This document shows positions 8,721-63,500 of a stretch of 64,000 bases of DNA, piece after piece. A model generated the notes under the pieces. That model saw only the letters and a program-made list of their open reading frames with translations, was not told where the DNA came from and made no database searches. Source of the stretch: an uncultured Flavobacteriaceae bacterium (lineage in GTDB: Bacteria > Bacteroidota > Bacteroidia > Flavobacteriales > Weeksellaceae); the NCBI GenBank assembly GCA_963530615.1, contig CAUSDX010000003.1:22181-86180 (forward strand). Reading direction: 5' to 3'. Position 1 is the stretch's first letter. Each line of letters begins with the position of its first letter. A program made the position numbers and the translations under genes.

Positions 8721-8739
8721 CAAAATAATTTTTCCCAAG

Positions 8740-9060
8740 ATGAGAAACATTAAAAATACCAAAGCAGAAACAAACACTATCACTTATGATAGAAATACCA
8801 TAGAAGAAAAAGTGGGGAGCATCTACGAGGCCATTGTAATCATGGGTAGAAGAGCAGAGCAAATCAACTCTGAAATCAGAACTGAACTTCATAATAAATT
8901 AGATGAGTTTGCCGTTCATAATGCTACTTTAGAAGAAGTTTTTGAAAATAGAGAGCAAATAGAAATCTCTAAACATTATGAAAAACTTCCAAAACCTACC
9001 TCTATTGCTATTAGAGAATGGCTGGATGATGAAATATATTTCAGAAAAACCGACAAATAA
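8740..9060 (+). CDS. rpoZ: DNA-directed RNA polymerase subunit omega
   Basis: 106 aa. IYEAIVIMGRRAEQIN core and bamD-rpoZ-coaBC synteny. Confidence 0.8.
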   Translation: MRNIKNTKAETNTITYDRNTIEEKVGSIYEAIVIMGRRAEQINSEIRTELHNKLDEFAVHNATLEEVFENREQIEISKHYEKLPKPTSIAIREWLDDEIYFRKTDK

Positions 9061-9089
9061 AGTTTCTCTTTTCATATTATTAAAATTGA

Positions 9090-9117
9090 GTTGTAGTATT
9101 TTTACTACAACTTTTTT
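9090..9117 (+). terminator. intrinsic terminator after rpoZ
   Basis: 9-bp stem gttgtagta/tactacaac, 4-nt loop, T-run. Confidence 0.7.
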
Positions 9118-9151
9118 ATTTGCTATATTTTTATAGATATTTTTAATTATT

Positions 9152-9159
9152 TACCTTTG
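9152..9159 (+). promoter_or_regulatory. Bacteroidota -7 promoter box (TACCTTTG)
   Basis: Matches TAnnTTTG just upstream of the ATG at 9165. Confidence 0.45.
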
Positions 9160-9164
9160 CTTAC

Positions 9165-10361
9165 ATGAAAACATTACAAGGAAAAAAAATCCTTATAGGA
9201 ATTACGGGAGGCATTGCCGCTTATAAAATCAATCATTTAGTCAGAGATTTTATCAAAAATGGTGCAGAAGTTCAGGTCATTTTAACACCATCTGCTAAAG
9301 ATTTCGTTAGCCCTCTTACCTTATCCACATTATCCCAAAAACCTGTTTATAGCGATTTTACTACCCCAAACGGAGAGTGGAATAATCATGTAGATTTAGC
9401 TCTCTGGGCTGATGTGATGCTCATCGCTCCTTGTACCGCTAATACTCTATCCAAAATAGCAAATGGAAATTGCGATAATCTTCTTATGGCAACTTACCTT
9501 TCTGCAAAATGCCCTATCTTTATAGCTCCTGCTATGGACTTAGACATGTATGCACACCCCTCTACTCAAAGGAATTTATCTATCGCTGAGGAATATGGAC
9601 ACATCATCATTCCTGCCGAAGAAGGCGAGTTGGCAAGTGGTCTTATAGGAAAAGGAAGAATGGCAGAGCCTGAAACTATTTTCAAATATATTCATGATTT
9701 TTTTCATCAGGAGGCTTCTTCGTTGAGTGGAAAGCATATCCTCATCACAGCTGGGCCTACTTATGAAGCCATTGACCCTGTCAGATTTATCGGTAATCAT
9801 TCTTCTGGAAAGATGGGCTATGCCCTTGCCGAAGAAGCTCACGGAAGAGGTGCGAAAGTAACGCTTATCTCTGGCCCAAGTGCCTTAACACCTCCGCAGG
9901 GGATTGACTTTCACAAGGTAACTACCGCCCAAGAGATGTTTGACCAAGTTTTCAACCATTACTCCCAAGCAGATATTGCTATTATGAGTGCAGCCGTTGC
10001 AGACTATACCCCTAAGGTTGTCGCTTCTGAAAAAATCAAAAAAAATGAGGAAGAAATGACCTTAACATTAGTCAAAAACCCTGATATTCTCAAAACTATG
10101 GGCGAAAGAAAGCAACATCAGTGGTTGGTGGGATTTGCTTTAGAAACCGAAAATGAAGAGGAAAATGCGAAGGGAAAACTACAGAGAAAAAATTTAGATA
10201 TGATAGTTCTCAACTCGCTAAAAGATAAAGGCGCAGGTTTCCAACAGGACACGAATAAAATAAAAATCATCACTGATACGGAGCAAAAAGAATTTTCTCT
10301 AAAATCAAAAAAAGAGGTCGCCAAAGACATTCTCAATTTCATAGAAAATAAGATTTCATAA
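9165..10361 (+). CDS. coaBC: bifunctional phosphopantothenoylcysteine decarboxylase / phosphopantothenate-cysteine ligase
   Basis: 398 aa with an N-terminal flavoprotein domain (ILIGITGGIAAYK) and a C-terminal DFP ligase domain. Confidence 0.93.
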   Translation: MKTLQGKKILIGITGGIAAYKINHLVRDFIKNGAEVQVILTPSAKDFVSPLTLSTLSQKPVYSDFTTPNGEWNNHVDLALWADVMLIAPCTANTLSKIANGNCDNLLMATYLSAKCPIFIAPAMDLDMYAHPSTQRNLSIAEEYGHIIIPAEEGELASGLIGKGRMAEPETIFKYIHDFFHQEASSLSGKHILITAGPTYEAIDPVRFIGNHSSGKMGYALAEEAHGRGAKVTLISGPSALTPPQGIDFHKVTTAQEMFDQVFNHYSQADIAIMSAAVADYTPKVVASEKIKKNEEEMTLTLVKNPDILKTMGERKQHQWLVGFALETENEEENAKGKLQRKNLDMIVLNSLKDKGAGFQQDTNKIKIITDTEQKEFSLKSKKEVAKDILNFIENKIS

Positions 10362-47993: not shown

Positions 47994-48021
47994 TATAGAT
48001 TATTTTCTATAAACTTTATTG

Positions 48022-48029
48022 TATTTTTG
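48022..48029 (+). promoter_or_regulatory. Bacteroidota -7 promoter box (TATTTTTG)
   Basis: Matches TAnnTTTG, 30 nt upstream of the ATG at 48059. Confidence 0.5.
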
Positions 48030-48058
48030 TATTAAGTTTTAATAAAAAATATATAATT

Positions 48059-48376
48059 ATGGCATTAGAATTTACAGACGGAACTTTTAAAGAATCCGTG
48101 TTACAATCAGATAAACCAGTATTAGTAGATTTTTGGGCTTCTTGGTGTGGTCCTTGTAGAATGCTTAGCCCTGTGATAGAGCAACTACATAATGAATTTG
48201 AAGGAAAAGCTTTAATTGGAAAAGTAAATGTAGATAACAACCAACAAGTTTCTGCAGAATATGGTATTAGAAGTATTCCTACGGTTTTAATCTTCAAAAA
48301 CGGTGAAGTTGTAGACAAAATAGTGGGAGTTTCTCCAAAAGAAACCTATATTGAAAAAATCAATGCTCATCTATAA
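48059..48376 (+). CDS. trxA: thioredoxin
   Basis: 105 aa with the WCGPC active site. Confidence 0.95.
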   Translation: MALEFTDGTFKESVLQSDKPVLVDFWASWCGPCRMLSPVIEQLHNEFEGKALIGKVNVDNNQQVSAEYGIRSIPTVLIFKNGEVVDKIVGVSPKETYIEKINAHL

Positions 48377-48394
48377 AAAACAACACTGAAAATG

Positions 48395-48427
48395 AGTGCT
48401 TTCTAAAAAAGAAAGCACTTTTATTTT
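48395..48427 (+). terminator. intrinsic terminator after trxA
   Basis: 9-bp stem agtgctttc/gaaagcact followed by a T-run. Confidence 0.7.
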
Positions 48428-48457
48428 CAAAATATTTGTTACTTATAATTATTATTG

Positions 48458-48465
48458 TATATTTG
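48458..48465 (+). promoter_or_regulatory. Bacteroidota -7 promoter box (TATATTTG) for the tRNA-Asp pair
   Basis: Matches TAnnTTTG, about 40 nt upstream of the first tRNA. Confidence 0.5.
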
Positions 48466-48505
48466 CAATCACAAAACGAGAGATGTAGTTCTTAAACAAT
48501 AAAAA

Positions 48506-48579
48506 GATCCGGTAGTTCAGTTGGTTAGAATGCCGCCCTGTCACGGCGGAGGTCGCGGGTTCGAGTCCCGTCCGGATCG
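48506..48579 (+). tRNA. tRNA-Asp (GTC)
   Basis: The 74-nt cloverleaf has acceptor gatccgg/ccggatc, a D-arm tagttcagttggttagaa, the anticodon loop ccTGTCAcg (anticodon GTC), and a T-arm gcgggttcgagtcccgt. CCA is not encoded. Confidence 0.9.
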
Positions 48580-48607
48580 CAAGATTTAATTTATTCCAAA
48601 GACTACT

Positions 48608-48681
48608 GATCCGGTAGTTCAGTTGGTTAGAATGCCGCCCTGTCACGGCGGAGGTCGCGGGTTCGAGTCCCGTCCGGATCG
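48608..48681 (+). tRNA. tRNA-Asp (GTC), identical second copy
   Basis: By eye this is the same 74-nt sequence as 48506-48579, with a 28-nt spacer between the two. Confidence 0.9.
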
Positions 48682-48684
48682 CAA

Positions 48685-48720
48685 AAAAGCTTTTCAATAT
48701 AGAAAAGCTTTTTTTGTTTT
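48685..48720 (+). terminator. intrinsic terminator after the tRNA pair
   Basis: 11-bp stem aaaagcttttc/gaaaagctttt followed by a T-run. Confidence 0.75.
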
Positions 48721-48816
48721 ATATTCTATTTTGCTATACAAAATTATTTTTCTCTTTCAAGATTAAACAAAATTTTATTTAATTTAGCCAAATAATTCAC
48801 AAAGTTAAGTTTCATT

Positions 48817-49536
48817 ATGACAAAATTAAGTGTAAATATCAATAAAATAGCTACTCTACGAAATTCCCGAGGAGGAAACCTCCCAAGTGTAACCGAAGCC
48901 GCAATAAGAATCCAAGAATTCGGGGCGGAAGGCATTACCATACACCCAAGACCCGACCAAAGACATATTACAAGACAAGATGTTTATGATTTAAAGCCAT
49001 TAATATATACGGAATTTAACATTGAGGGCAATCCTCATCGACATTTTGTTGATATGGTTTTAGAAGTAAAACCCACACAAGTAACCCTTGTACCTGATGC
49101 TGATAATGCCCTAACTTCTAATGCAGGTTGGGATACCAAAACCCATTTGGAATATCTCACAGAGATTATTACAGAATTCAAAAACGCAGGAATTAGAACT
49201 TCCATTTTCCTTGACCCAAAACCTGAACTTTGTGAATATGCAGCAAAAACAGGAACTGACAGAATAGAACTTTACACCGAAGCTTATGCTTCCCACTATC
49301 ATCAAAATAGAGAACTTGCCCTAAAACCTTATTTAGAAACAGCTATTAAAGCAACAGAGTATGGTCTTGGAATCAACGCAGGACATGATTTAAGTTTAGA
49401 AAACTTACAATATTTTGCAGAGAATATTCCTAATCTCTTGGAGGTGTCCATCGGGCATGCACTCATCAGCGATGCTCTTTATATGGGCATGGAAAACACC
49501 ATTCAGGCTTACTTAAAAAGATTAGAGATAAAATAA
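48817..49536 (+). CDS. pdxJ: pyridoxine 5'-phosphate synthase
   Basis: 239 aa. LSVNINKIATLRNSRGG, ITIHPRPDQRHI and NAGHDL are present. Confidence 0.95.
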   Translation: MTKLSVNINKIATLRNSRGGNLPSVTEAAIRIQEFGAEGITIHPRPDQRHITRQDVYDLKPLIYTEFNIEGNPHRHFVDMVLEVKPTQVTLVPDADNALTSNAGWDTKTHLEYLTEIITEFKNAGIRTSIFLDPKPELCEYAAKTGTDRIELYTEAYASHYHQNRELALKPYLETAIKATEYGLGINAGHDLSLENLQYFAENIPNLLEVSIGHALISDALYMGMENTIQAYLKRLEIK

Positions 49537-49538
49537 TC

Positions 49539-49829
49539 ATGCCCAAGAAAAGAGAATTTCAATCATCAGAATTGGTGAAATCTTTAGCAAAAATATATGG
49601 TTTTGAAGATGTTTTGACCGCTTTTAAAATCAAGGATTTTTTAGAAGAATACCTTGATGAGATGCTGTTTAATGAAATAGAAGGTGTAAGAATCAAAAAC
49701 CAAATTCTTACGCTTAGAATAAAATCTCCGCTTCTCAAAAATGATTTCCAAATGAGAAAGTCTTTCTATATCAAGAAAATCTCCCAAGCAGTAGAAAATG
49801 TTAAAATCACAGACCTACAAATTATTTAA
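49539..49829 (+). CDS. DUF721 (DciA-like) domain protein
   Basis: 96 aa. The size and the pattern (...W.......I...T....I.....L.I...S......L) fit small flavobacterial DUF721 proteins. Confidence 0.5.
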   Translation: MPKKREFQSSELVKSLAKIYGFEDVLTAFKIKDFLEEYLDEMLFNEIEGVRIKNQILTLRIKSPLLKNDFQMRKSFYIKKISQAVENVKITDLQII

Positions 49830-50466
49830 GATGAATCGTGTTCATCTGTCTCAACACCCATTGATGTTTCTTTTTCAGAGCAGGAGTAGAATTTTTCGGG
49901 TCATAAGATTTCGGGTTTGGTAAAACTACAGCAATCCATGCTGCTTCTGATTTCGTCAAATCCTTTGCAGATTTTTGGAAATAATACTTTGCCGCTGCCT
50001 CTACCCCAAAAACACCCTGCCCCATCTCAATGGAATTCAAATAACGCTCTAAAATAATATCCTTACTCCAAAACTTTTCTATTACAAAAGTATAACCCAC
50101 TTCTAAACCTTTTCTTAGCCAACTTCTTCCATTCCAAAGAAAAATATTCTTTGCTGTTTGCTGAGAAATTGTACTTCCGCCGCGGATTTTACCCCCCTTT
50201 TGATTGTGGGCAATTGCCTTTTCTATAGCTGACACATCAAAACCTGAATGCGTGTAAAACTTCTGATCTTCAGAGGCGATAACCGCTTTTTTCACCCAAT
50301 CCCCCATTTCATCAAAAGAAATATAATCACGGTCTAATTTTTGGTATAAAATAACCCCTTCTATCTGAGTCCAAGTAATAATTGGATTAAAAAAACGCCC
50401 CCATGCTATTGCTAAAATATTTAAAACAATAACAACATAAACTATTTGCTTGATTACCTTGAACAT
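49822..50466 (-). CDS. mtgA: monofunctional biosynthetic peptidoglycan transglycosylase
   Basis: 214 aa with a TM anchor and the GT51 motifs ASEDQKFYTHSGFD, GGSTISQQTAKN and RYLN. Confidence 0.92.
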   Translation of the reverse strand: MFKVIKQIVYVVIVLNILAIAWGRFFNPIITWTQIEGVILYQKLDRDYISFDEMGDWVKKAVIASEDQKFYTHSGFDVSAIEKAIAHNQKGGKIRGGSTISQQTAKNIFLWNGRSWLRKGLEVGYTFVIEKFWSKDIILERYLNSIEMGQGVFGVEAAAKYYFQKSAKDLTKSEAAWIAVVLPNPKSYDPKNSTPALKKKHQWVLRQMNTIHLK

Positions 50467-50494
50467 CTTTTATTTTTTTATTAGAAATTGGGAG

Positions 50495-50502
50495 CAAAGA
50501 TA
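50495..50502 (-). promoter_or_regulatory. Bacteroidota -7 promoter box for mtgA (caaagata on the plus strand = TATCTTTG on the minus strand)
   Basis: Reverse-complement match to TAnnTTTG, 29 nt upstream of the mtgA start at 50466. Confidence 0.5.
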
Positions 50503-50617
50503 ATTTTTTTATTTCATCTCTTTTATAAAACCTAAAATTTCACAATTTTTTTTGAATAAATCAGATAAGAATCTTATCTTCGCGACTAAATTTTTACAAT
50601 AAATAAAGTATTGGCTT

Positions 50618-50846
50618 TTGTTCTGCTGTCCGAAAACTGGAAATTTTCATAACAACACAGAAACAATTAGTTTAATACTCACGCCATATAGGTGTGGGTT
50701 ATTTCTATTTTGTGTTGTAAGGTAATTCCAGTACCTCGGGCAACAAAAAAGAAACTCCCATACCTTTTTTTATTGTCCACAAAAAATAAAAAGAGTTAAT
50801 TTTATTCTGTTGCCCGAAAACTGGAAACTTTCATAATAGCAACACA
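50618..50846 (+). ncRNA. structured repeat block: a ~130-nt imperfect hairpin (arms 50618-50659 / 50708-50746, apical hairpin 50677-50699) plus a third direct arm (50802-50846). Candidate ncRNA/leader or REP-like element.
   Basis: Hand alignment and pairing of the three ~42-nt arms. No ORF is present. The strand is assigned only because the downstream island genes are on the plus strand. Confidence 0.4.
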
Positions 50847-51004
50847 GGATAGGTTAGCCTATGTAAGCGGAGGGACACGAATGCGGTTCCTTTGCTGTAT
50901 AGCCCCAGCTGTAAAAGAATAAGATTCTGCCCCAGCTCTTTTTGAGTAGAATATTCACATCTCCGATAGAGGCAGCGGAGATACCTATTCTGAAAGGCAA
51001 ACAG

Positions 51005-51628
51005 ATGGAAGGCAAACAAGTAAAATCCAAACAGCGAGTAGCAGACCACGGCGAGGTATTCACTGCCGAGAGAGAGGTAAAAGCTATGGTAGATTTGGTA
51101 TGGAAAGAGTTAGACAGAGGCAGTGCAGATAAACTGATGACCGCTACTTTTTTAGAGCCATCTTGTGGTTCTGGTAATTTTCTCATAGAAATTCTCCGCA
51201 GAAAGATAGATCTCCTTAAAAAAACAAAAAAAGATAAAGCCGAATATCGGTTTTATTTGGTGATGATTGCTGGTAGTCTCTATGGTGTAGAGCTCCTTCC
51301 TGATAATGCCCAAGAGTGCCGAGAAAGACTTCTCGCAGAGTTCCAAAAAGCATATCCCAAAAAAGAAGCCGTCTATGAAAGACTGATGAAGAGCATCGCG
51401 TTCGTCATCAGCCAGAATATCATTTGCGGTGATGCCCTTACCTACACTACCCCAGAGGGGGAGCCTATCCTCTTCACCCACTGGGTAGGCACAGGCATGC
51501 CAAAAATTACCGCCAATTACTTTGACTACGGCGAACTAACGAACAAAAAAATGGGAAAGATGTCTCTCTTTGCAGAGCATACCGTGAAAGACTCCGTGAC
51601 GAAGCACTACTTGGAACTCTCAGAATAG
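51005..51628 (+). CDS. SAM-binding DNA-methyltransferase-like protein lacking catalytic motif IV
   Basis: HGEVFTAEREVKAMVDL plus motif I FLEPSCGSGNFL (51149-51184), followed by YGVELLPD and NIICGDAL. No (D/N)PP(Y/F) motif occurs before the stop. The start was placed at the ATG at 51005; the track's TTG at 50942 would read through a 7-bp hairpin (atctccg...cggagat). Confidence 0.65.
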   Translation: MEGKQVKSKQRVADHGEVFTAEREVKAMVDLVWKELDRGSADKLMTATFLEPSCGSGNFLIEILRRKIDLLKKTKKDKAEYRFYLVMIAGSLYGVELLPDNAQECRERLLAEFQKAYPKKEAVYERLMKSIAFVISQNIICGDALTYTTPEGEPILFTHWVGTGMPKITANYFDYGELTNKKMGKMSLFAEHTVKDSVTKHYLELSE

Positions 51629-51649
51629 CCTAAAACCTTTTTTTCTCTC

Positions 51650-53227
51650 ATGAAAAATTACAATCCTGACATTCTCAACTGTCTTGCCAATCTGAGCAGT
51701 GATGAGGTCTTCACTCCGCCTAACATTGCTACCAAGATGCTGGATCTCCTACCACAGAAGCTCTTCTCTGACCCTAATGCCAAGTTCTTAGACCCTTTCT
51801 CCAAATCTGGTGTATTTTTAAGAGAAATAGCCAAAAGACTGCTGAAAGGTTTAGAAAGCCAAATCCCAGAATTGCAGGAGCGTATAGACCACATCATGCA
51901 CCACCAGCTCTATGGCATAGGCATCACGGAGCTTACCGCCTACATGAGCCGCCGTAGTCTCTACTGCTCCACTCGTGCCAATAGCAAGCACTCCGTTACT
52001 CACTTCCCAGATGAAGACGGCAACATCTTCTTTGAGGAAATCTCCCACACATGGGACAAAAACAGAAAATGCATCTACTGCGGTGTGAACCAAAAAGACT
52101 TTGGGGATGAAATAAGAGAGGGACTCTCTAAATATGCCTACCCCTTTATCCATAACCTTAACCCTTACGAAAACATGAACTTTGATGTTATTATAGGAAA
52201 TCCGCCTTACCACTTAAATGTAGGGAATGATAAAGAAAAAGGAAATAGCTCAAAAGCAAAAGCTATTTATCATCTCTTTATTGACCAAGCTATCAAAATG
52301 AACCCTAAATATATTTGTATGATTATACCAAGCCGCTGGATGACAAGAAGTACAGAGGGGGTATCTGAAAAATGGATAGATAAAATGCTAAGTTCTAATA
52401 AGTTTAGAATCATACATGATTTCTTGGATGCCAAAGGTATTTTCTCCGGAACACCTCCAAAAGGTGGAGTCAATTATTTCTTATGGGACAGAGATTACAA
52501 TGGGGAGTGTCATTATTATCTATATGAAAGTGCAAATAAACCTTCCTCTTATAGATTTGAAGCATTAGATAAAAATAATTCAGGTATTATCATCAGGGAT
52601 AGGATAGCCAACGATATATTAAAGAAAATATCAGAAGTTCATCAGGATTATATGAAAAATGGGGAGAATTTTTCTTCCTTAATTAGCCCAAAGGACTTTT
52701 TTACCAATAAACAATGGCTTACTTCTAGTTGGAATGGTTTTGCTAACACTCCTAATCAAGATTATAACATCAAATATTATCCTAATAAAATACTTCTAAA
52801 AAATGGCGCTAATTTTGGCTGGATTAACATCAACCAAATCCCTAAAAATAGAGAAACTAAAGACTTACATAAGGTATTTATTCCTGCCGCAGGAGGTTCG
52901 GGAACAGATACCCATGTTTTAGGACATCCTTTTTATGGTGAGCCTAATTCAGTGTGCTCACAAACATATTTGGTAATAGGATATAATCAAGACTTTACCA
53001 AAGAAGAGTGTTTAAATATTATCTCCTACATCAATACTCGTTTTTTTAGATATTTAGTTTCTATTAAAAAGAAAACCCAAAATGGAGCAAGAGGCGTTTA
53101 CCAATTTGTCCCTATACAAGATTTTGACAAGCCATGGACAGATGCAGAGCTTTATGATAAATACAGCCTCACAGAAGAGGAAATTGCCTATATAGAGAGT
53201 TTGGTAAGTGATAAAAGAGAGGAGTAA
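51650..53227 (+). CDS. N6-adenine DNA methyltransferase, Eco57I/TaqI-like gamma class, with C-terminal target-recognition region
   Basis: 525 aa. SSDEVFTPP, a motif I variant FLDPFSKSGVFL (51785-51820), the catalytic DVIIGNPPY (NPPY at 52199-52210), and a typical C-terminal tail (PWTDAELYDKYSLTEEEIAYIE). Confidence 0.85.
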   Translation: MKNYNPDILNCLANLSSDEVFTPPNIATKMLDLLPQKLFSDPNAKFLDPFSKSGVFLREIAKRLLKGLESQIPELQERIDHIMHHQLYGIGITELTAYMSRRSLYCSTRANSKHSVTHFPDEDGNIFFEEISHTWDKNRKCIYCGVNQKDFGDEIREGLSKYAYPFIHNLNPYENMNFDVIIGNPPYHLNVGNDKEKGNSSKAKAIYHLFIDQAIKMNPKYICMIIPSRWMTRSTEGVSEKWIDKMLSSNKFRIIHDFLDAKGIFSGTPPKGGVNYFLWDRDYNGECHYYLYESANKPSSYRFEALDKNNSGIIIRDRIANDILKKISEVHQDYMKNGENFSSLISPKDFFTNKQWLTSSWNGFANTPNQDYNIKYYPNKILLKNGANFGWININQIPKNRETKDLHKVFIPAAGGSGTDTHVLGHPFYGEPNSVCSQTYLVIGYNQDFTKEECLNIISYINTRFFRYLVSIKKKTQNGARGVYQFVPIQDFDKPWTDAELYDKYSLTEEEIAYIESLVSDKREE

Positions 53228-53244
53228 CTTAAAAAATAAAAATT

Positions 53245-53907
53245 ATGAAAAAAATAGAATTAAAAAAAGAATATTACTATGAAATATTTTGTAATAATAT
53301 GGGAGATATTCCTAACTATAAAGTAGTTAAATATTTAGGAAATCATCAAATACAATTTTTGGATAATAATGAAATTATAGAATTAGATGAAACTCTAATA
53401 ACTCATGCCGATAAGCAACTAAAAAATGGAAAAAATATTACCTATGCCAAAGGGATTTTCGGTTTTAGAGATATATCAATAGAATCCAAACATTTAGAAA
53501 AATTAGGTTTTATAAAAAAAGAAGGAAATTTATATGAAATAGATAATCCTAATATAAAAATTATGATGTATTTAGCAATATTAGGAGATGAAAACTTTAA
53601 TTACATCGGAAATATTGTAATGAATAGCAAAGAATATAATCATCTTATTCAAAAAATAGAAGATAAAGAAGAATGGAAAAATAAATATAAAATTGTCTTT
53701 AATAATACATTATACATTATTGATAATACTAATATTATAGATTATTTATACTACGGAAAGCCAATGAAGTTAAATTTAGATGCACATAATGAAATAGTAA
53801 CAATAATAAATGAAAATTTCAAAGGAATACGAAATATAAATGAATTATTTGAAAGATTAGAAAAAGAAGGAGTTAAAATAGAAAATAAAGATGAAATACT
53901 AATATGA
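53245..53907 (+). CDS. hypothetical protein (N/I/K-rich, extremely AT-rich gene)
   Basis: 220-aa ORF, 17 nt after the MTase stop on the same strand. No motif recognised. Confidence 0.55.
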   Translation: MKKIELKKEYYYEIFCNNMGDIPNYKVVKYLGNHQIQFLDNNEIIELDETLITHADKQLKNGKNITYAKGIFGFRDISIESKHLEKLGFIKKEGNLYEIDNPNIKIMMYLAILGDENFNYIGNIVMNSKEYNHLIQKIEDKEEWKNKYKIVFNNTLYIIDNTNIIDYLYYGKPMKLNLDAHNEIVTIINENFKGIRNINELFERLEKEGVKIENKDEILI

Positions 53908-53919
53908 ATGAAATACTCG

Positions 53920-54127
53920 CTCTCCACCAAGTATAAAACAAGCAAAGCGGAGTATGAAATACCCAAGACCAAGTGTAAAATAAGCGAGACCGAGTGGTAT
54001 TTTTAGAAGATTGAGCAGTAAAAATGCAAAACGGAGTGTAAAATATCAAAAACCAAACAGTATATTTAGAATAATGAGTAGTAAAAATCATTTTTTTTAG
54101 AATAATTCAAAAACTGAGTAAGAAATA
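53920..54127. repeat. 21-bp phased degenerate tandem array, about 10 units (core RAGTRTAAAAYA)
   Basis: Unit anchors at 53931, 53952, 53973, 53994, 54015, 54036, 54057 and 54078 are exactly 21 bp apart. A weaker unit lies near 54118. Confidence 0.85.
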
Positions 54128-54144
54128 TTAAAAATTAAAAAATT

Positions 54145-54801
54145 ATGACAAAGAAAATCTACAAAACCAATGAAGAAATGCTCCAAAATGCTCAAGTGCT
54201 TTTTGAGACCATAGAGAAAAACCAAGACATCGCCCAAAAATTAGAGGACTACGGCTACCCTACGGCAGAAATCGCCAAGGGCAAAAAGCTCTACACCACC
54301 GCACAAACTCTCTACGGCACCAACAAGAAAGAAACCGAAGAAGAACGCATCGCTTACCAGAAATTCAGCTCCGCTATGGACGAGCTTACCAAAACCTATG
54401 CCGAGCATCGCAACAAAGCCAAGCTTATCTTCAAGGAAAACGAAACCGCGAAAATCAGCCTTGCCCTCAAAGGAAGCCCTGCCACTGCCATCACCACACT
54501 TCTGGAAGAAATCACCCAGTTTTATAAAAACCTCCATGAGCAAGAAGCTCTCAGAACACCTCTTATCAGAGTGAAAATCACCACAGAAAACATCACCGAC
54601 CAACAGGCGAAAACCTCCCAAGTGAAAAATCTATACTCTACCTATGCACAAGAAAAAAACGAAAGTCAACAAGCGACCAAAGACAAGAATAAAGCCTTTG
54701 CCGACCTTGATAAATGGACCCGCGAACTCTACGCCTACGCCAAGTATGCCCTTGCCGAACATAGCCAGTTCTTACAAATATTTGGCAAAACCGTGAAATA
54801 A
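54145..54801 (+). CDS. hypothetical protein, predicted all-helical with an internal duplication
   Basis: 218-aa ORF in the GC-richer part of the island. Two similar ~90-aa halves are visible (LYTTAQTLYG...AMDELTKTYAEH and LYSTYAQEKN...AFADLDKWTRELYAY). No known motif recognised. Confidence 0.6.
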   Translation: MTKKIYKTNEEMLQNAQVLFETIEKNQDIAQKLEDYGYPTAEIAKGKKLYTTAQTLYGTNKKETEEERIAYQKFSSAMDELTKTYAEHRNKAKLIFKENETAKISLALKGSPATAITTLLEEITQFYKNLHEQEALRTPLIRVKITTENITDQQAKTSQVKNLYSTYAQEKNESQQATKDKNKAFADLDKWTRELYAYAKYALAEHSQFLQIFGKTVK

Positions 54802-54851
54802 AATTTTGGCAAAAAGATAGAATATATCAACTTTCTTAAAAACCGAATAAA

Positions 54852-57449
54852 ATGAATTTTTTTACACAAAATAACATCCCTAAAATATATGCCTACACCG
54901 ATGAGCATTTCCCAGGTATGCTAAAAGTAGGCTATACTACCAAAACCGCCGCCGAACGAGTAAAAGAGCAATACCCCGTGAAGATGCCTCGCCAGACTTG
55001 GGAAATCGTTTTAGAAGAAGTAGCCACAAGAGAAAATGGCACTTATTTTACTGACCATGACCTGCATAAAAGATTGGAAAAAAAAGGCTTTCACCGAGAA
55101 AATGGAGAATGGTTTCTCTGCACTCTGAAAGATTTAGAAGCCATCATCATAGAAGAAAAAAAAGGCATCGTCAACACTGAAAACCGCTCCCAAAACTTCA
55201 GCATGAGACCAGAGCAAAAAGAAGCCGTAGAGCGTACGGCAAGATACTTCACTGCCGTGAGAGAGGAGGGCTACACCCCTCACTTCCTTTGGAATGCCAA
55301 AATGCGTTTCGGAAAGACTTTTGCGACATATCAACTTGCCCTAAAAATGGGCTGGACTAAGGTACTCGTGCTGACCTTCAAACCTGCTGTCCTCAGTGCA
55401 TGGCGAGAAGACCTCCAAGAACATATAGACTTCCAAAACTGGCAGTTCGTTTCCAATAAAGAAGAAGACCTCAACCCAAAGGAGATTGACAAAAATAGAC
55501 CCTTCGTGTATTTCGGCTCTTTCCAAGATCATTTAGGTTTAGATAAAAAAACAGGTCTTATCAAACCTAAAAATGAATGGCTACATGATGTAGAATGGGA
55601 CTGCGTGATCTTTGATGAATACCACTTCGGTGCATGGAGAGATAAATCCAAAAAAATCTTTGAAGCCATAGAAGGTACTGATGACAAAGATAAAGAAGAA
55701 AAAAAACGACTAAAAGAAGAACTAAAAGAATTCAAAGAACAAGAAGAGGAACAAAAAGAGTTAGACACCGAAGAATCTGGAAAAACAGAAGACCTCTCCT
55801 ACTTTGATGAAAACCTCATTACCATCTCTACCAAACATTACCTCTATCTTTCAGGGACACCCTTCCGTGCCTTGGCAGATGGGGAGTTCATAGAAGAACA
55901 AATCTATAACTGGACCTACTCCGATGAGCAAAAAGCCAAAGCTGAATGGAAAGGCGAGAATAATCCCTATGCCTCTCTCCCAGAAATGATAATGATGACC
56001 TATCAGCTCCCTGGTGAAATCAAGGACATCGCCTCTAAAGGAGAATTTAATGAATTTGACCTCAACACTTTCTTCTCTACCGAAAAAGCCGAAAATGAGC
56101 ATAACAGCGAGAAAAAAACCAAAAAAGGGAAGAGAAATGAAGAAAATACCGTCTTCAAATACCAAGACGAAGTGCAAAAATGGCTAAACTTTATCCGTGG
56201 GCAGTTTTTAGGAAATGCTGAAGCACAGCTCAAACAAGGAAAAAGTAAAGCACCAATGCCTTTCTCCGATAGCCGACTTTTGGACATCTTACAGCATACC
56301 TTTTGGTTCTTACCGAATGTATCCTCTTGCTATGCCATGGCAAACCTTCTGAAAAGCCCTAAAAATCAAGCCTTTTTTGGAGATTATAACATCGTGGTCT
56401 GTGCAGGAGCAGAAGCAGGAATAGGCGTAGAAGCCCTAAAACCTGTGGCAAAAGCCATGGGCGACCCCCTCAAAACCAAAACCATCACCCTCTCCTGCGG
56501 AAAACTCACCACAGGGGTTTCTGTCTCACCTTGGTCAGGGATTTTCATGCTGAGAAACTCTTCCAGCCCAGAGACTTATTTCCAATCCATCTTCCGAGTG
56601 CAAACTCCTTGGGTCATTAAAAACCCTAATGGAGAAACTCCAAATGAGCGAGTCATCATCAAAAACAAATGTTATGTGTTTGACTTTGACCCTAACCGAG
56701 CATTGAAACAAGTGGTATCCTATGCTCAAAAACTAAATACAGACGCAAGCATACCTTCGGAAGAGAAAATAACGGAACTTATCAGTTTCTTACCTATCTT
56801 GGCTTATGATGGGGAGAATATGACAGAAATAGATGCTTTAAAAGTATTAGAAATTGCCCACAATGGGACTACCGCTACCTTACTTGCCAGAAGATGGGAA
56901 TCGGCTCTGCTCGTCAATGTAGATAATATTACCTTGGAAAAACTTCTCAAAAACCAAGAAGCCATGGACATATTAGAAAATATAGAAGGATTTAGAAATT
57001 TAGGGCAAGATATAGAAACCATCATCACTAAATCTAACGAGATAAAAAAAAATAAACAAAAAGGAACGACTAAAGATCCCAAAGAAAAAAAGAAACTTAG
57101 TGAGGAGGAAAAGGAATACAAAAGCAAAAGAAAACAGATTCAGGATAAACTTCTAAAATTCGCGACCAGAATCCCTGTATTCATGTATCTCTCCGAATAT
57201 AGAGAGCAGACTCTGAGAGATGTCATCACCCTCTTAGAACCTGAACTCTTCAAAAAAGTAACTGGGATAGAGGTGAAAGATTTTGAACTCTTAGAAAGAT
57301 TAGGACTATTCAACAGCAATCTGATGAATGATGCCGTGGAAAAATTCAAAGCCTATGAAGACAGCTCCCTTGCCTACACAGGAAAGAAAACTTATGGTAA
57401 TCTCAGAGTAGGTTTATTTGATACCACAAAAACTATTACAGAAGAATAA
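54852..57449 (+). CDS. T5orf172/GIY-YIG-like nuclease domain fused to an SF2 (restriction Res-type) helicase
   Basis: 865 aa. The N-terminus is IYAYTDEHFPGMLKVGYTT...ERVKEQ...DHDLHKRL...NGEWF (T5orf172 pattern). Helicase motifs are Walker A FGKT (55311-55319), DEYH (55614-55625), LSGTPF and motif VI QSIFRVQT. There are K/E-rich insertions. Confidence 0.8.
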   Translation: MNFFTQNNIPKIYAYTDEHFPGMLKVGYTTKTAAERVKEQYPVKMPRQTWEIVLEEVATRENGTYFTDHDLHKRLEKKGFHRENGEWFLCTLKDLEAIIIEEKKGIVNTENRSQNFSMRPEQKEAVERTARYFTAVREEGYTPHFLWNAKMRFGKTFATYQLALKMGWTKVLVLTFKPAVLSAWREDLQEHIDFQNWQFVSNKEEDLNPKEIDKNRPFVYFGSFQDHLGLDKKTGLIKPKNEWLHDVEWDCVIFDEYHFGAWRDKSKKIFEAIEGTDDKDKEEKKRLKEELKEFKEQEEEQKELDTEESGKTEDLSYFDENLITISTKHYLYLSGTPFRALADGEFIEEQIYNWTYSDEQKAKAEWKGENNPYASLPEMIMMTYQLPGEIKDIASKGEFNEFDLNTFFSTEKAENEHNSEKKTKKGKRNEENTVFKYQDEVQKWLNFIRGQFLGNAEAQLKQGKSKAPMPFSDSRLLDILQHTFWFLPNVSSCYAMANLLKSPKNQAFFGDYNIVVCAGAEAGIGVEALKPVAKAMGDPLKTKTITLSCGKLTTGVSVSPWSGIFMLRNSSSPETYFQSIFRVQTPWVIKNPNGETPNERVIIKNKCYVFDFDPNRALKQVVSYAQKLNTDASIPSEEKITELISFLPILAYDGENMTEIDALKVLEIAHNGTTATLLARRWESALLVNVDNITLEKLLKNQEAMDILENIEGFRNLGQDIETIITKSNEIKKNKQKGTTKDPKEKKKLSEEEKEYKSKRKQIQDKLLKFATRIPVFMYLSEYREQTLRDVITLLEPELFKKVTGIEVKDFELLERLGLFNSNLMNDAVEKFKAYEDSSLAYTGKKTYGNLRVGLFDTTKTITEE

Positions 57450-57471
57450 GCTTTATTCTATATATTCCCCT

Positions 57472-57503
57472 AAAAAAACCGCTATTGTTTATAGCGGTTT
57501 TTT
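57472..57503 (+). terminator. intrinsic terminator closing the island operon
   Basis: 8-bp stem accgctat/atagcggt flanked by an A-run and a T-run. Confidence 0.7.
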
Positions 57504-57551
57504 CTTTATTCATTCCTATAAAAATATCTTTTTCACTTAATATATCTTATG

Positions 57552-57589
57552 CTAAATAAAAAATAATTTGTCTTAAAAAGACAAATTAT
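57552..57589 (-). terminator. intrinsic terminator after sprA
   Basis: 11-bp stem ataatttgtct/agacaaattat, followed by a T-run on the minus strand. Confidence 0.65.
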
Positions 57590-57596
57590 TTTATTT

Positions 57597-60500
57597 TCAA
57601 TTTGTATTTCCTCCAAAGGTAAAATTAGCTGTAATCCCTGCCCTTATCGTGGATAGCGGATATGCCGTAGAAACTTTATATTTGGTTACTAACTGATTAT
57701 AAAACAATCTCATTTGGAAATTTTGAGAAAAATTATAATCTGCAGAGAAATTTACCCCCAATATTTTTTGTCCACCCGTTACCTGTATATCTTCCTTTAA
57801 TATATTGGTAACTCTGGTTCTATTATCTCTCAAAGAAATATCCATCTTCAAGTTCAAATCACTTTTAATCGTTCTACTCTTACCTCTAATGGTCATTCTC
57901 ATCTTCAAATCTTTAATAATATACCCCAATCCAAAAATATACTCTGAACCTGAATCTTCCGTCAAGGTATAATTCTGAACTCCCAAAACATAGGCTCTAT
58001 TCTTGTTATACATCGCACGGATTTGCATGTTATTTCTCATCGTAACATCTGCCCCTAATAATGGAGCGAACTCCTCCACATAGCCCACTTGAGAAAAAGT
58101 ATAAGGATTAATATAATTATTATTCGTGTCTCTATCCGTAACTCCATTGGTTTGATAATTATAATAATCTGAGCTTGATTGAATCCCCGAAGTGGTATAA
58201 GTGGCCTTATAACCATGTAGTAAATCAAATTTTGCAAAATGTTTATTAATTATCGGCAAATTCTTTAAACCAGAATAAATTACCTGCCAATTGGGAAGTG
58301 GAAATTTAGATTTCGTAGGGTTTTCTTTACCCACTTTTTTCCCTCCTATTGCTGACTTAAATGCAGGAATCAAAACATAAGAATTTGCTAATCCATAACC
58401 ATCTACAAAGCCATCAGTGTTCAATGCACCTCCAAAACTTTGAGAAATCTCTCTTGCATTCTGCACCAGATTCATATATAAATCCCTACCATCTTTGAAG
58501 GAAGTCCCTAAAATCATATCAGAATAAGAAAAACTCATCATCTCCTTAGCATAGGATAGTTGGTCATTCACCAAAATATTATAATTCGTATGTGATAAAG
58601 AACGCGACTGATTTTTCAAAAAATTCAAGTCTATTCTTAAATCATTCATCGGTTGAATTTGAATATTCCCTGTCAAAGCTTTGGTATTCATCTGGGTGTA
58701 GGCATCTGTCATTAAATCCGATGCAGAAACCAAATTACGCTCTATCATGAGCCTACGAATATCAGATTGAGAACCTAATAAAAACCCATAAGTAGGCCCT
58801 CCGCCATTACTTCCATATCCAAAGAAATTCGGAGAAGAAAGAATCCCTGGCAATGATGTTCCACTTGTTTCATTATAAGAAATATTCGCTTGTTTAAAAG
58901 AAGTCAAAGCATACAAAATAGACTGTATTGGTGTCAACTTATTTTTGAATTGATAATTCTTCGTATTCTCTACTTTCTTTCCTTTGCTTCTCTTTTCAGC
59001 AATATCCACATTGTATTTTTCCATCACTGCAATCTCTGCTCTCCTTGCAGATATAGTTTTCTCTAAATTTTGGAAATATTTGAATTTACCTAATAAAGAA
59101 GGAATATTCACAGAAGCCGTAGCCACTGTATTTACACTATTTTGAGCTAAATTTCCTAAATCTGCCGAAGAAAGCACCGTAGAACGAGCCGACCAATTAT
59201 ACTGAATGCCTCTTCCTACTTCGGCATTGATGAAATCCAAATATGGGAAATACTCAAAAGGCAATCTATAATTCATCTGAATTCTATGATTATACAATAC
59301 TGGTCTTCCTACCTTAAACGGATCCTTAAAGATAGAACGAGTATTCAAATCTACTACCGACAAATGGTCATTGAGTGTTCTGGTATATGAATTTACATCT
59401 AATTTTAAGGATTTTGTCAAATTAAACCCTAAATTATACTGCCACCCGAAATAAAAAGTTCTCGTTCGGGTCGTTTGAAAATCTGTTCCAGCACCAGAAG
59501 TTCCCAACAATATCGCATCTATATTTCTATATTGCAATTCGTTATAATTTCTATCTATTTCCGTTCGGAAAGAAAATCTTGTAGGAATAGGATTGAGATT
59601 AAACTCTTTCACCCAATTAAGATATTTTGCAGATTTTGCGGTATCGCTTATCAGTTTATTGAATGGCCTGATATTCACTGGCTTAAAATTATAGGAATAA
59701 TCTATATATCCACGAAGATACTGACGATAATTTTTAGTGGTGTGAATATCACGATAAAAATCATCATTATATACCGCTGTAACGGATAAATTTTCTACAT
59801 CATAAAACCGCTGTTTCTTTTGTGGATTGGTTCTTTCCTTTCTCATATTAACCACTCCTATGCTTCTCTGCTGAGAGTAAGTTCTTACTACTTTTTTCAG
59901 TTCATTTTTTATAGGACTTTTACTCAGCTCTACATCATTATCAAGAGGGTTATATTTGGGGTCTTCTATACTTTGGGTATAAGAATAATTCACAGGAATT
60001 TTCATTCCAAATTTTTCTGGTAAAAATTTATCTAAATTTACCGTAGTATCAATATGAAATTGAGAAACTTCCGTTTGAGACCTCTCTGATGGCTTCTGTG
60101 TAATCGTTCCAAAACCTACCGAAGACATTGCCCCTGTGGCATTTACCAACGCAAAATCTCCTAAATTAAAATTAAGACTTGCATTTGCTGCATAACCACT
60201 TTTATTCTCTGTCCCAGAAACTCTAACCTCATTCATCCACAATACAATATCTTTAGAAATACTGCTCGCATCTTGATTTCTTACCCCCATTACAATACTG
60301 GTGATATTCCCTAAACTTGGGCGACCTTTCACATAAATTTTCTTATTCTCATTCCCATAAGAAGTATCAGTATATCTGCTATCTATTACTGCTGAAGCCC
60401 TATCTCTTCTACCTTTAATATCCGTAAATTCTTGCAAATCAAGAGCAATAGTATTTTCTGTAGGCCAAATTTCATAAGGTGTTCTTGCATTCGCTGAAGT

Positions 60501-63500
60501 ATATTTTAATGATGCTTCATATTCATAATAATTATCCGTAGCATCACTTCCTAAACGAATAAAAAATTTGGTCTTGTCATCTAATTGAGTAGAAGTTACA
60601 TTTTTCAAATCCTGAGCATGAACAAACATTTCTAACTTTTCATATCTCCTTAAATCCAAAGACACATTTTTATACAAAGCTCGAGCATCATTACTTAATC
60701 CTGTAACTTTCATATACAAAGAGCTTTCATTCGCTCTCTGTGAACCTGCATTCCCACTAAATACCTCCCTATCTATCCCTGGTGGCAACATATATGGCGG
60801 TGTCCCCATAGAGTTTTCTTCCAAATTCACACTACCTACATCTACATTAGAAGCATCTATCATTCCAAAGCCTTCATTTGTGGTATTATCTACCGCGACA
60901 GGCTTAGTGTATTTTCTCCAATCAGAACGCACCAAATCAAATGTCCCAAATCTCAAAGTAGAAGTCTCATCAAATCCTGTCAAAAGCAGTCTCGCAAAAC
61001 GAACATTATTCAAAACATCTCTGCTATGCTCCCCTGCTGTGGTATCAAACTGCCCCACAGGAATGCGGAATAGATACCATTTATTCCTTCCAGAACGCCC
61101 ATCTTCAAAGGTAGTTTGCACTTCTTTAACATCTACAATATTATTTTGACCTAAAACTAAATTATTTCTATTTAAATCAATAGTATATTGATTATAATTT
61201 TCATATTGGTCAAGGTTATAATCCCCATTAATATCTTCTACATCAGGCGTTTGCGATGACACCTCCAAAGGCCCAGAAGCGGAATTCCCATCTGGATTCC
61301 TAAAATAACGATAACGCTCCACCACAGAACTTGCCATGCTTCCTTGAAATCTATCAGACAGAAAATACACAAAATCATCAGATGCTGGGTCTAACTCATT
61401 GGTAACTGGATTCACAAACGATGTTCCAAATTTCTCATGCTCACCTGCATTATTTAATCCATCATACCCCACATCTTGAGCCTTTCTGTCAGCCCCTTCC
61501 GAAGAAAAAGTATAAAGTATAGGTGATACACTTGGTTGGGTTCCCCAGTTGGTCGTTGTCGTTACCGAAGGAGATGAATCCGTAGGTAATCCATTTTCAT
61601 ATTGTAAATGACCATCTTTCAAAACATCTTCAGAAATATTCCCTAAATGAAGCAATAATTTAGGATTTGCTCCCAAATTTCCTCCATCAGCATAAGGGTC
61701 CATCATCCAAAATTCTACATATTCTATATTAGAAGTTGTAAAATTAGACACCGATATTGGTCTCATCAGCCCTGCCCATCTATCTTGAGTAGCTTCATGA
61801 TTAGGATTAAAATTATAAGGACCTCTTTCCTTTGGATAATAAGAAATATCAAAAGTATTGGTAAAAGTTTCTTCTCCCGCTACATAATCTCTAGTATTAT
61901 ACAACTCACTGAGTCTCACTCTACGAGACATGTGATTAGACACGCTTTGCGTAGAAATACCATTAGGTGCAGTGCCACCAATGCCATAAAATCTCGGGTC
62001 AATATTATACCACGAAATAAGCCCTCTTCCATAGCCATTTACAATACTATTATTTACTCCTGCATTCCTAAATAATGCATCTCTTGTATTTTGTTCAGGT
62101 TTGGAAGCTAACCCCCACATTGCAGGGTCTTTGAGGGATATTTTAGAAGAACTTTGCTCAAAATCATCTATATAAGACTGGTTCTGAGCATTTTTACTCT
62201 GCCCTGGTATCAAATATGCAGCTTCCACTCTGAAATTTATATTTGATGGAGCACTAGTCTTAATCCAAGGAATTTTATTGGTAAATCTTGTCAAGAATGG
62301 AGCTTCATTACTATACAAAACATTAACTCCCAACATGGTGTTATTCACAGCCTCTTGTCCATACTGCACTTTTTGAGTTAATGGCGTCTCTCTATAATTA
62401 ACTGCTGTGGCACCTATTAACAAATTTTCATTGATTTTCCTTTCTAAATTTAATCCCAAAAATCTCTTTCTTTGAGTATTAAAATTTAATTGATTTTCAA
62501 GACTAATGTTTATTGCCTGACCAGATTGTTTTATCGTTTCATTAATAATTGTAACACTCCCTAACAAATAATCTACCGTATAATCTACCCCCTCTATCAA
62601 GGTTACTCCATTAGAGGTTACTTTTACAGAGCCTTGCGGAATATTGATTGCTCCCAAAGAAATTCCAGAAGATGATGTGCCTTTATACCTTCCTTCTAAA
62701 GTATATCTTTGAGCCAAATTATTCTGTGCTGCTACGGATTTTAATTGACGATAAAGATCAGTAAAAACATACCGAGGATTATTAGCCCCCAATACATTTT
62801 CTAAATGCCTACCGAAAGGTTGAGTTTTCGTAAAAATCAATTTTCCGTTTTCTCTGTCAATGGTCAAACCTTCCACCATATCAAATAATCCATCTCCATA
62901 AGTCCCATTAGAATTTTGCTGAAAATCCCCATTAAGATTCAATCTATCCCAATTGAATAAACTCAACAAATTAGTATCCTGCACATTCGTATTTGGTAAA
63001 TAATTAACCTTACCATTATTGGGGTCTCTATAGTACACTCCCATCAAGAAATCGCTGGTGTCTATATTCGCCGTATTAAGAGAATAAATATTCTTCATCA
63101 TCAAGTCCCACATCGGAGAACTTGTTTTCATGGAAGTATTTGGCTTTAATAATTTGGTAATCAACACAGAAGAATTATCCTCTGAAAATTCACCGACTTT
63201 ATATACATTAGAATCTCCACTAACAGTATATGAAAATGACACAGCCAAAAGCTGATTATCATTTAGCCTTTGGTTCAATGAAATATACCCTAATTTCGGA
63301 TGGAATTTATACTCGTTTTCATTTAATTTTCTTGCTCTTCTCGTGAAAACAAAATTCTCTCCTTCTTGGTAAGGCTGATTTCCTCCCGCAGTGATGTCAT
63401 ACAAAGACTGCCCTTTTATGCTATTATAAGCAGAAGTTACATCTCTAATTCCTGCTAAATTTGTAATATCTTGATAAAGATTGTTCTGTGAATTACTTGG

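Follow-up and report, generated by a model that had tools for sequence, protein, structure and literature searches.

A horizontally acquired island between mtgA and sprA of an uncultured Flavobacteriaceae bacterium carries a probable DrdVI-family restriction-modification system and two apparent passenger genes

What do the five same-strand genes between mtgA and sprA on contig CAUSDX010000003.1 of an uncultured Flavobacteriaceae bacterium encode? A first-pass annotation of the 64,000-nt stretch of this contig that we analyzed (the window, whose positions are used throughout) had taken the ~7.1-kb gap between the two genes for a non-canonical restriction-like or phage-defense module. The list of open reading frames (ORFs) agreed with the gap and its contents: mtgA occupies 49822-50466 on the minus strand (Pfam Transgly, E=5e-56), sprA occupies 57597-63884 on the same strand and extends past the start of that ORF (its homologue in L001 has 2340 aa with SprA_N), and five plus-strand ORFs lie between them at 51005-51628, 51650-53227, 53245-53907, 54145-54801 and 54852-57449. 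Our analysis indicated that the island is real and largely explained, being a fairly ordinary defense island with a few unexplained extras. Its core is very probably a three-gene restriction-modification (R-M) system of the DrdVI family (genes M1, M2 and R, the first, second and fifth ORFs), with two passengers, ORF3 and ORF4, between M2 and R.

The first clue to this identity came from PADLOC, in which a single 1359-aa R-M model (PDLC03626) matched both R and M2. A tblastn search of plasmids then turned up all three genes on pDrdVI, a plasmid of Deinococcus wulumuqiensis NEB 479 (CP031164). M1 was 41% identical to M1.DrdVI (E=4e-37), M2 was 41% identical to M2.DrdVI over 519 of its 525 residues (E=2e-133) and R was 53% identical to the product of the pDrdVI R gene over 853 residues (E=0). 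The features of the DrdVI family are all found in the window, namely a small M1 without NPPY, an Eco57I-type M2, and an R with GIY-YIG and superfamily 2 (SF2) parts, in the order M1-M2-R on one strand. DrdVI and MaeIV likewise consist of three proteins in the same order on the same strand. The label "non-canonical" therefore had to be dropped, since the half-methyltransferase that had helped to prompt it is canonical in this family. What did hold was the proposed logic of a methylase working with an ATP-dependent helicase-nuclease that has a GIY-YIG-type domain in place of PD-(D/E)XK. A match of all ORFs to one named system had been set as the result that would overturn the proposal; three of the five matched DrdVI, and ORF3 and ORF4 did not. 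The window locus differs from pDrdVI in being chromosomal rather than plasmid-borne, and in that the M2 and R genes overlap in pDrdVI whereas 1.6 kb of extra DNA (ORF3, a 21-nt array and ORF4) separates them here. REBASE already names this family, of which the core is one more member that does not change what is known.

The DrdVI family has been described in a few earlier reports. M1-2.DrdVI was cloned by New England Biolabs in E. coli and assigned N6-methyladenine (m6A) in GCAGCC under the label "Type IIG" (PMC6430315), and the R protein of DrdVI was described as "a fused translocase and REase" (restriction endonuclease) with GIY-YIG (PMC4996451). For MaeIV of Methanococcus aeolicus, expression of M1 and M2 in E. 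coli gave m6A on GCACY. In 2009, Morgan et al. had already predicted that nuclease-less MmeI-like methylases work with a neighboring helicase and GIY-YIG protein (PMC2731913), and Sisakova et al. (2012) pointed to the use of helicase subunits and GIY-YIG nucleases by relatives of Type ISP and IIL enzymes (PMC3553950).

We analyzed the three core proteins individually, beginning with R. The R gene (54852-57449, plus strand) encodes an 865-aa protein in which a T5orf172/GIY-YIG-like nuclease is fused to an SF2 translocase, homologous to the DrdVI translocase-REase. The nuclease domain (T5orf172/MUG113) is N-terminal, at residues ~12-99 (nt 54885-55148), and the SF2 motifs are GKT (154-156), DEYH (255-258), SGTP (334-337) and QxxFRVQ (578-584). 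Pfam identified T5orf172 (E=6e-9) and ResIII (E=2e-6) and detected no domain at the C-terminus, and PDLC03626 matched over its positions 151-803 (E=4e-34). A search for relatives of R returned at least ~8000. Within the R family, the GIY-YIG-like residues Y13, Y15, R36 and E86 are invariant, as are GKT (Walker A), DEYH, SGTP and QxxFRVQ. The domains and the invariant motifs together bear out the nuclease-helicase fusion that had been read from the translation. With a profile of the R family we also fetched 80 metagenome loci, of which 50 had enough upstream DNA to be searched for the other subunits and 73 could be scored for the gap between M2 and R. M2 was found in all 50.

M2 (51650-53227, plus strand) is a 525-aa gamma-class N6-adenine methyltransferase (MTase) of the Eco57I family with the motif IIGNPPY and a C-terminal target-recognition half. 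The Pfam match to Eco57I (PF07669) had an E-value of 8e-33, which together with the NPPY motif supported the earlier reading of a full adenine MTase, and PDLC03626 matched over positions 863-1356 (E=1e-41). Pfam gave no match of M2 to any other MTase class; its score against MmeI_Mtase was 23.1 bits with a cut-off of 27, and a sequence search of the PDB returned no match. The family alignment keeps FLDPFxKSGVFLREI and IIGNPPY, with NPPY and motif I invariant. We considered whether motif I of M2 (DPFSKSG) had degenerated through decay and rejected this, since it is invariant across the family. Relative to the metagenome loci, the N-terminal catalytic half of M2 was 52-79% identical and the C-terminal half only 24-42%, as is expected of a recognition domain. 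Because the recognition half has diverged from that of DrdVI, the target sequence is probably different. We also noted that C106, H133, C141 and C144, in the pattern H-T-W-x5-K-C-x-Y-C-G, are invariant within residues 106-144 (window ~51965-52081) and might together bind zinc in an insert between motif I and NPPY.

The trio was also found in Bergeyella, Riemerella, Tenacibaculum and Capnocytophaga, at chromosomal sites that differ between the genera. The differing sites, together with occurrences on plasmids and in a phage, indicate horizontal spread without dedicated mobility genes. The phage, NatCom_35866 (PV036449), is a temperate-looking human-gut member of the Caudoviricetes with an excisionase, and carries at 4679-9910 a DrdVI-like trio made up of M1 (260 aa), an MTase (506 aa) and R (974 aa; 54% identity to the window R). 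Since the trio in this gut phage is complete, phages are one vehicle of the DrdVI-like family. On conjugative Firmicutes plasmids, we observed single chains of ~1450 aa, at 4220-9299 in the locus from Enterococcus faecium and at 3617-8669 in that from Lactococcus lactis, with the order nuclease-translocase-Eco57I MTase plus recognition part; in the Lactococcus chain, an additional ~230 aa at the N-terminus precede the T5orf172-like part. In Bergeyella porcorum (CP136426, locus positions 4079-5591), M2 was called as two ORFs of 352 and 153 aa and is probably frameshifted.

M1 (51005-51628, plus strand) is a 207-aa S-adenosylmethionine (SAM)-binding pseudo-methyltransferase homologous to M1.DrdVI. 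The length is counted from the ATG, and a TTG at 50942 is an alternative start. It matched positions 16-119 of the 259 in Pfam MmeI_Mtase, that is, the N-terminal half; motif X (HGEVFT) and motif I (FLEPSCGSGNFL) are intact, and the position of motif IV holds GDAL, not NPPY. The description of this ORF as a SAM-binding MTase-like protein without a catalytic motif was therefore accurate. The family alignment keeps motif X (K..RV..HGEVFT), motif I (FLEPxxGxGNFL) and YG[VI][ED]; motifs X and I are invariant, and G[DN][AT][LM] stands at the motif IV position. At least ~8000 homologues stand alone as proteins of roughly 150-260 aa. M1 was present in 48 of the 50 metagenome loci, the exceptions being one in which it would run off the contig edge (L088) and one in which the M2 match was truncated (L077). 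An M1 homologue (230-248 aa, 37-38% identity, E=1e-27 to 1e-33) also precedes the fused chains of the Enterococcus and Lactococcus plasmids, in each case under the name "N-6 DNA methylase". The fact that the M1 gene is kept even upstream of fused chains suggests that it encodes an obligatory partner and is not a broken gene. By its homology, the half-MTase is the canonical M1 subunit of the DrdVI/MaeIV "split methylase" family.

The three proteins may work as follows. M2 would read a short asymmetric site through its C-terminal recognition half and methylate one adenine, with M1, which has kept its SAM-binding motifs and lost the catalytic one, as its obligatory non-catalytic partner. R would dock on the methylase at unmodified sites, translocate on double-stranded DNA with ATP, and cut with its N-terminal GIY-YIG-type domain. 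As with Type ISP and Type III enzymes, a single site would probably not be enough for cutting. Since GCAGCC has an adenine on one strand only, hemi-methylation would protect, and the need for two sites would have to avoid self-cleavage after replication. Specificity would change through recombinational exchange of the target-recognition half of M2, and ORF3 and ORF4 would be independent cargo at the junction of the modification and restriction genes, as are the accessory genes in Type I loci.

The limits of the island were set by a relative that lacks it. A scan of GTDB genomes for mtgA retrieved a metagenome-assembled genome of an uncultured Flavobacteriaceae bacterium (L009) in which window position 51006 is fused directly to 57523, with flanks 92-95% identical to the window (blastn and junction alignment). 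Because L009 joins these two positions, the insert corresponds to ~51008-57522 (6.5 kb), and the island is a presence/absence polymorphism relative to the closest relative. The left edge is the ATG of the first gene. The right edge lies just past the intrinsic terminator of the island (57473-57503, plus strand; a 13-pair stem and then a T run, 24 nt past the R stop), which is within the inserted DNA absent from L009. Neither a target-site duplication nor terminal repeats were found at the junctions in the alignment with L009, and the ORF list and Pfam revealed no integrase, recombinase or transposase in 51008-57522; the lack of an integrase, a transposase and flanking direct repeats had been noted before and was confirmed. 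Among the properties of genomic islands, polymorphism among close relatives and atypical composition were found, and a recombinase, direct repeats and a specific target were not. The island is thus a horizontally acquired, restriction-like island without mobility genes. A comparison of mtgA-sprA synteny in related genomes had been proposed. L009 has the island-free junction, and in B. porcorum mtgA is not adjacent to sprA, so it is L009 by itself that carries the synteny argument.

Composition within the island is mosaic, as earlier hand counts had indicated and a sliding window confirmed. The GC content was 32.9% for the window, 34-35% for the flanks and 37.4% for the island; by segment it was 44% for M1, 42% for the N-terminal and 33% for the C-terminal half of M2, 20.5% for ORF3, 44% for ORF4 and 40% for R. 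The low-GC segment (33% falling to 20%) marks a strain-variable cassette at 52340-53925 that comprises the target-recognition half of M2 and ORF3. Two further contigs, L003 and L004, are 97-99.9% identical to the window on either side and unrelated to it across 52340-53925, where M2 is 495 or 496 aa long and the gene after it is a 244-aa ORF or encodes a 272-aa GNAT protein. The latter (L004, 8198-9016) has its GNAT domain at the C-terminus (residues ~160-260), and its N-terminal half is unassigned. The R protein was 100% identical on the 22 same-species contigs read (the index lists R in 42 blocks), so that M2 alleles are swapped within the species while R stays unchanged. This pattern identifies the low-GC stretch as a recombinationally exchanged cassette of the M2 recognition half and the adjacent passenger. 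An exchange of the recognition half that also carries the neighboring gene thus explains the low GC content of both.

We then asked whether the two genes between M2 and R belong to the system, since the extra parts of the locus had been proposed to be regulatory or sensing components. The gap between M2 and R was shorter than 300 bp in 63 of the 73 scored metagenome loci, and an insertion was present in the other 10. ORF3 (53245-53907, plus strand), a 220-aa protein, was matched by nothing in Pfam, PADLOC, NCBIfam or PHROG, and its cluster representatives number only 8 among 1.84 billion proteins. Strains whose R protein is identical have unrelated genes in place of ORF3. A 45%-identical homologue adjoins a kdsA-like gene and not an MTase, and for this reason we rejected the idea that ORF3 is tied to a particular MTase allele. 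In other loci the slot holds RhuM, YhcG/DUF1016, Bro-N, IrrE/M78 with DUF4411, HEPN_AbiV, DUF6261, GNAT, or AAA_21/AAA_15 with a DUF4276/OLD-TOPRIM-like partner; in B. porcorum it holds six small ORFs that include a DUF6261 protein. Genes of these cargo families are recurrent in Type I systems as well, where they lie between M/S and R. Type I loci with accessory genes, such as prrC in ecoprrI (PMC12707154), resemble the window locus in having unrelated defense- or toxin-type genes between the modification and restriction genes, and differ in that the host R-M family is another one. A slot that is near-empty in most loci, a replaceable ORF3, and an ORF4 family that also occurs without DrdVI-like genes speak against the regulatory proposal, and both genes appear from these comparisons to be dispensable passengers and not components of the system.

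The second passenger, ORF4 (54145-54801, plus strand), encodes a 218-aa, all-helical protein of the PQLLE family (NCBIfam NF052641, E=4e-59), so that of the two ORFs described as having no recognizable motif only ORF3 remains without a family. PQLLE comprises 27 clusters from Capnocytophaga, Riemerella and relatives. An AlphaFold2 model of the protein had a mean predicted local distance difference test (pLDDT) score of 90.7, and structure searches of the PDB and BFVD with it found no relative, only generic helical bundles. The only PADLOC match was a marginal one to PtuA (E=9e-4). Kinship with the DUF6261 protein that occupies the same position in B. porcorum was rejected by BLASTP and hhalign (probability 0.07). 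In Capnocytophaga sp. ARDL2, PQLLE lies in the same M2-R slot directly upstream of R; in Riemerella anatipestifer it is directly downstream of R; and in C. canimorsus and R. columbina it stands alone among housekeeping genes. We also observed it in two Type I loci (L113 and L114, 1180-12785) in which five genes are embedded between hsdM and hsdR: SLFN/AlbA_2-HATPase, hsdS, a 263-aa unknown, PQLLE, and an SMODS nucleotidyltransferase with an S_4TM effector, a pair resembling CBASS (cyclic oligonucleotide-based antiphage signaling systems).

Directly upstream of the PQLLE gene is an array of about eight degenerate, phased 21-nt repeats (53922-54090, plus strand; core ...ACCnAGTGTAAAATA...) that are A-rich on the plus strand. 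Autocorrelation of 53908-54144 gave z=5.7 at lag 21 and z=4.9 at lag 42, and three control intergenic regions stayed below 1.3. A period of 21 (or 42) nt was present upstream of every PQLLE gene examined except the Type I-embedded copy, including those of R. anatipestifer, C. canimorsus, R. columbina and Capnocytophaga sp. ARDL2, and the sequence of the unit differs between lineages. These arrays lie at L025 10750-10965 (10 copies by Tandem Repeats Finder), L108 ~6810-6870, L111 ~6745-6805 and L115 6780-6960. The "iteron-like" block that had been described is therefore a real array, but by its distribution it is part of the PQLLE module and not of the R-M core. We rejected the array as a structured RNA (fold z=+0.8 and -0.3) and as a coding repeat of seven codons, since frames and peptides are not conserved between lineages; several minus-strand frames are open at once because the plus strand is A-rich. 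With a period of two turns of the helix, the repeats would suit the binding of protein to one face of the DNA or curvature by phased A-tracts, and the array may be an operator array or curved promoter DNA.

Could the trio instead be a canonical Type III, Type ISP or BREX-like system that ORF calling had split? Pfam ResIII does match R, LlaGI (5ffj) is among the Foldseek matches of a low-confidence R model (rank 24, E=8e-4), and M1 gave weak, partial matches to PglX in PADLOC/NCBIfam (E=2e-4 and 9e-4). But the three-gene split is kept in hundreds of loci, and neither R nor the R-family profile matched any PDB sequence, deposited Type ISP and Type III enzymes included. Type ISP enzymes (LlaGI, LlaBIII) do share with the window a nuclease, an SF2 translocase, a gamma-class adenine MTase and a recognition domain in the same N-to-C logic, as well as an asymmetric site with one-strand methylation, and the Firmicutes plasmids carry single-chain relatives of window R plus M2. 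They differ in being a single polypeptide, where the window modules are split over R and M2 with M1 in addition, and in having an N-terminal Mrr/PD-ExK nuclease and not a T5orf172/GIY-YIG-like one; phmmer and profile searches found no sequence match to the deposited Type ISP structures, and the structural match, on the low-confidence model, was weak. In Type III systems Mod is beta-class, whereas M2 is gamma-class and of the Eco57I type, and Res has an N-terminal helicase and a C-terminal PD-(D/E)XK nuclease, whereas the GIY-YIG-like nuclease of R is N-terminal. BREX needs PglX with PglZ, BrxC and BrxL, the last three of which are not among the five ORFs. A mis-split canonical system is thus extremely improbable. 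The dnmA-yeeB-yeeC genes of Bacillus subtilis and Vibrio crassostreae, which we compared by description, likewise combine an adenine MTase with a recognition domain, an SF2 helicase and a GIY-YIG/T5orf172 nuclease. They differ in that helicase and T5orf172 are on separate proteins, with T5orf172 C-terminal, and in that the MTase is a single MmeI-like chain with no M1 reported (PMC9973331, PMC2731913), whereas window M2 stays below the MmeI_Mtase cut-off.

Several points weigh against an active DrdVI-family system with two passengers. The translocation and collision steps are drawn by analogy, the role of M1 as obligatory non-catalytic partner is inferred, and the literature found does not report whether M2 alone methylates; nor did we find published cleavage biochemistry for DrdVI, for which a methylation motif and a one-line description of R are on record. 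The AlphaFold2 model of R was poor (pLDDT 60.5 from a 21-sequence alignment), and its Foldseek matches were generic Snf2/SF2 translocases, among which SauUSI ranked fourth. Expression depends on host sequence, since the junction coincides with the first ATG of the island. The related, MmeI-like dnmA-yeeB-yeeC is inactive in B. subtilis, where it gives no phage or plasmid restriction (PMC9973331), and the DrdVI-like genes of Bibersteinia are frameshifted, fragmented and silent, with small ORFs between M and R (PMC4996451), so such loci can decay. The window locus might likewise be a decaying relic that has lost restriction and perhaps keeps methylation as an orphan epigenetic mark, a reading to which the split M2 of B. 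porcorum (352-aa and 153-aa ORFs) and the 1.6-kb insertion, which could uncouple expression of M2 and R, would also lend themselves. We consider this quite unlikely, since none of the three core ORFs is truncated or has lost a catalytic motif, R does not vary among the contigs read, exchange of the M2 recognition half between strains is a signature of selection on specificity, and the four-gene layout persists in Capnocytophaga at a divergence of about 60%. Finally, PQLLE lies at or beside R genes in four lineages, which makes a functional link to restriction conceivable. With ORF3 still as cargo, PQLLE and its array might be a functional accessory of ATP-dependent restriction, either timing R expression as a controller or monitoring the R-M complex as a second-line effector, for which PrrC in EcoprrI offers a precedent (PMC12707154). 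Its place directly upstream of R (window, Capnocytophaga sp. ARDL2) or downstream of it (R. anatipestifer), its presence in a Type I hsdM-hsdS...hsdR locus next to SMODS and S_4TM, and an array whose period is kept while its sequence diverges with the gene, as for a protein-binding operator, are consistent with such a role. We nevertheless regard it as rather unlikely: PQLLE stands alone in C. canimorsus and R. columbina, occurred in none of the 80 metagenome DrdVI-like loci, and has no recognizable DNA-binding, nuclease or NTPase domain and no structural relative, its PtuA match being marginal. Similarly doubtful is a reading of PQLLE with its array as a new self-contained module and, separately, of M1 as a SAM-sensing pseudo-methyltransferase that licenses the nuclease-translocase. 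The module would be a single-gene defense or abortive-infection factor, or a controller of R-gene expression, that repeatedly lodges at modification-restriction junctions of ATP-dependent R-M operons (DrdVI-like, Type I) in the Flavobacteriales. We therefore retain the DrdVI-family trio with two passengers as the best account of the island.

The DNA between mtgA and the island (50467-51004) had also been counted as part of the module, as an RNA-like block. Since it is present at the empty site of L009, it is host intergenic backbone outside the island. Of two structured non-coding blocks described earlier, this one was confirmed by fold z-scores of -5.5 for 50600-50749 and -3.0 for 50855-51004, and the other, the 21-nt array, was not. 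A long foldback occupies 50616-50745, in which the arm 50616-50657 pairs with ~50700-50745 around a terminator-like hairpin (50677-50699), and the arm recurs at 50800-50841 as a second copy in direct orientation. L009 holds one arm copy and lacks 50661-50778. This 42-nt repeat (50616 and 50800) is the sole strong repeat near the junctions and lies entirely on the left side, in backbone DNA. By its layout, 50616-50841 looks like a small foldback or MITE-like (miniature inverted-repeat transposable element) insertion upstream of mtgA. The GC-rich piece 50855-51004 forms four hairpins on the plus strand, abuts the left junction and is followed directly by the first ATG of the island. It falls in a region (50779-51006) that is 97.8% identical in L009, against 92-95% for neighboring DNA, and is thus better conserved; it could be an unannotated small RNA or leader. 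A search of 48000-58500 against Rfam with permissive E-values matched only tRNAs and nothing in either non-coding block. No convincing promoter of M1 or PQLLE emerged from a sigma-70 scan or from a search for the Bacteroidetes -7 motif (TAnnTTTG), and a well-placed -7 box was found only for mtgA (50495-50502, minus strand).

Farther to the left we observed two identical tandem tRNA-Asp(GTC) genes (48506-48580 and 48608-48682, 102 nt apart), 2.3 kb from the junction. The statement that there is no flanking tRNA was thus wrong as to presence and right in that the pair is not the insertion point: tRNA-targeted integration was rejected, since the pair is 2.3 kb away and pdxJ, a DciA-like ORF and mtgA intervene. 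The same-species contig L004 apparently has a single tRNA-Asp, and its blastn alignment to the window breaks at 48582/48608. The DciA-like ORF, of 96 aa (49539-49829, between pdxJ and mtgA), scored 21.7 bits against a Pfam threshold of 24 and overlaps the 3' end of mtgA by 8 nt on the opposite strand.

Taken together, these observations leave the role of M1, PQLLE with its 21-nt array, and the conserved structured backbone element at the left junction unexplained. Of all the elements here, only the PQLLE gene with its array is left without an explanation from a known family. The DrdVI-like family is very large and extends over chromosomes, plasmids and at least one gut phage, and in the papers found it is the methylation side alone that has been measured, with M1 and R biochemically uncharacterized. 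If M1 were a sensor of SAM that licenses the nuclease-translocase, this would set the family mechanistically apart from Type I, Type III and Type ISP systems. The natural swaps of the M2 recognition half beside an identical R offer a ready-made test of how specificity is passed on from M2 to R. Finally, the M2-R junction is a landing pad for accessory genes of the kind found in Type I loci, and may be a useful place in which to find new defense genes.

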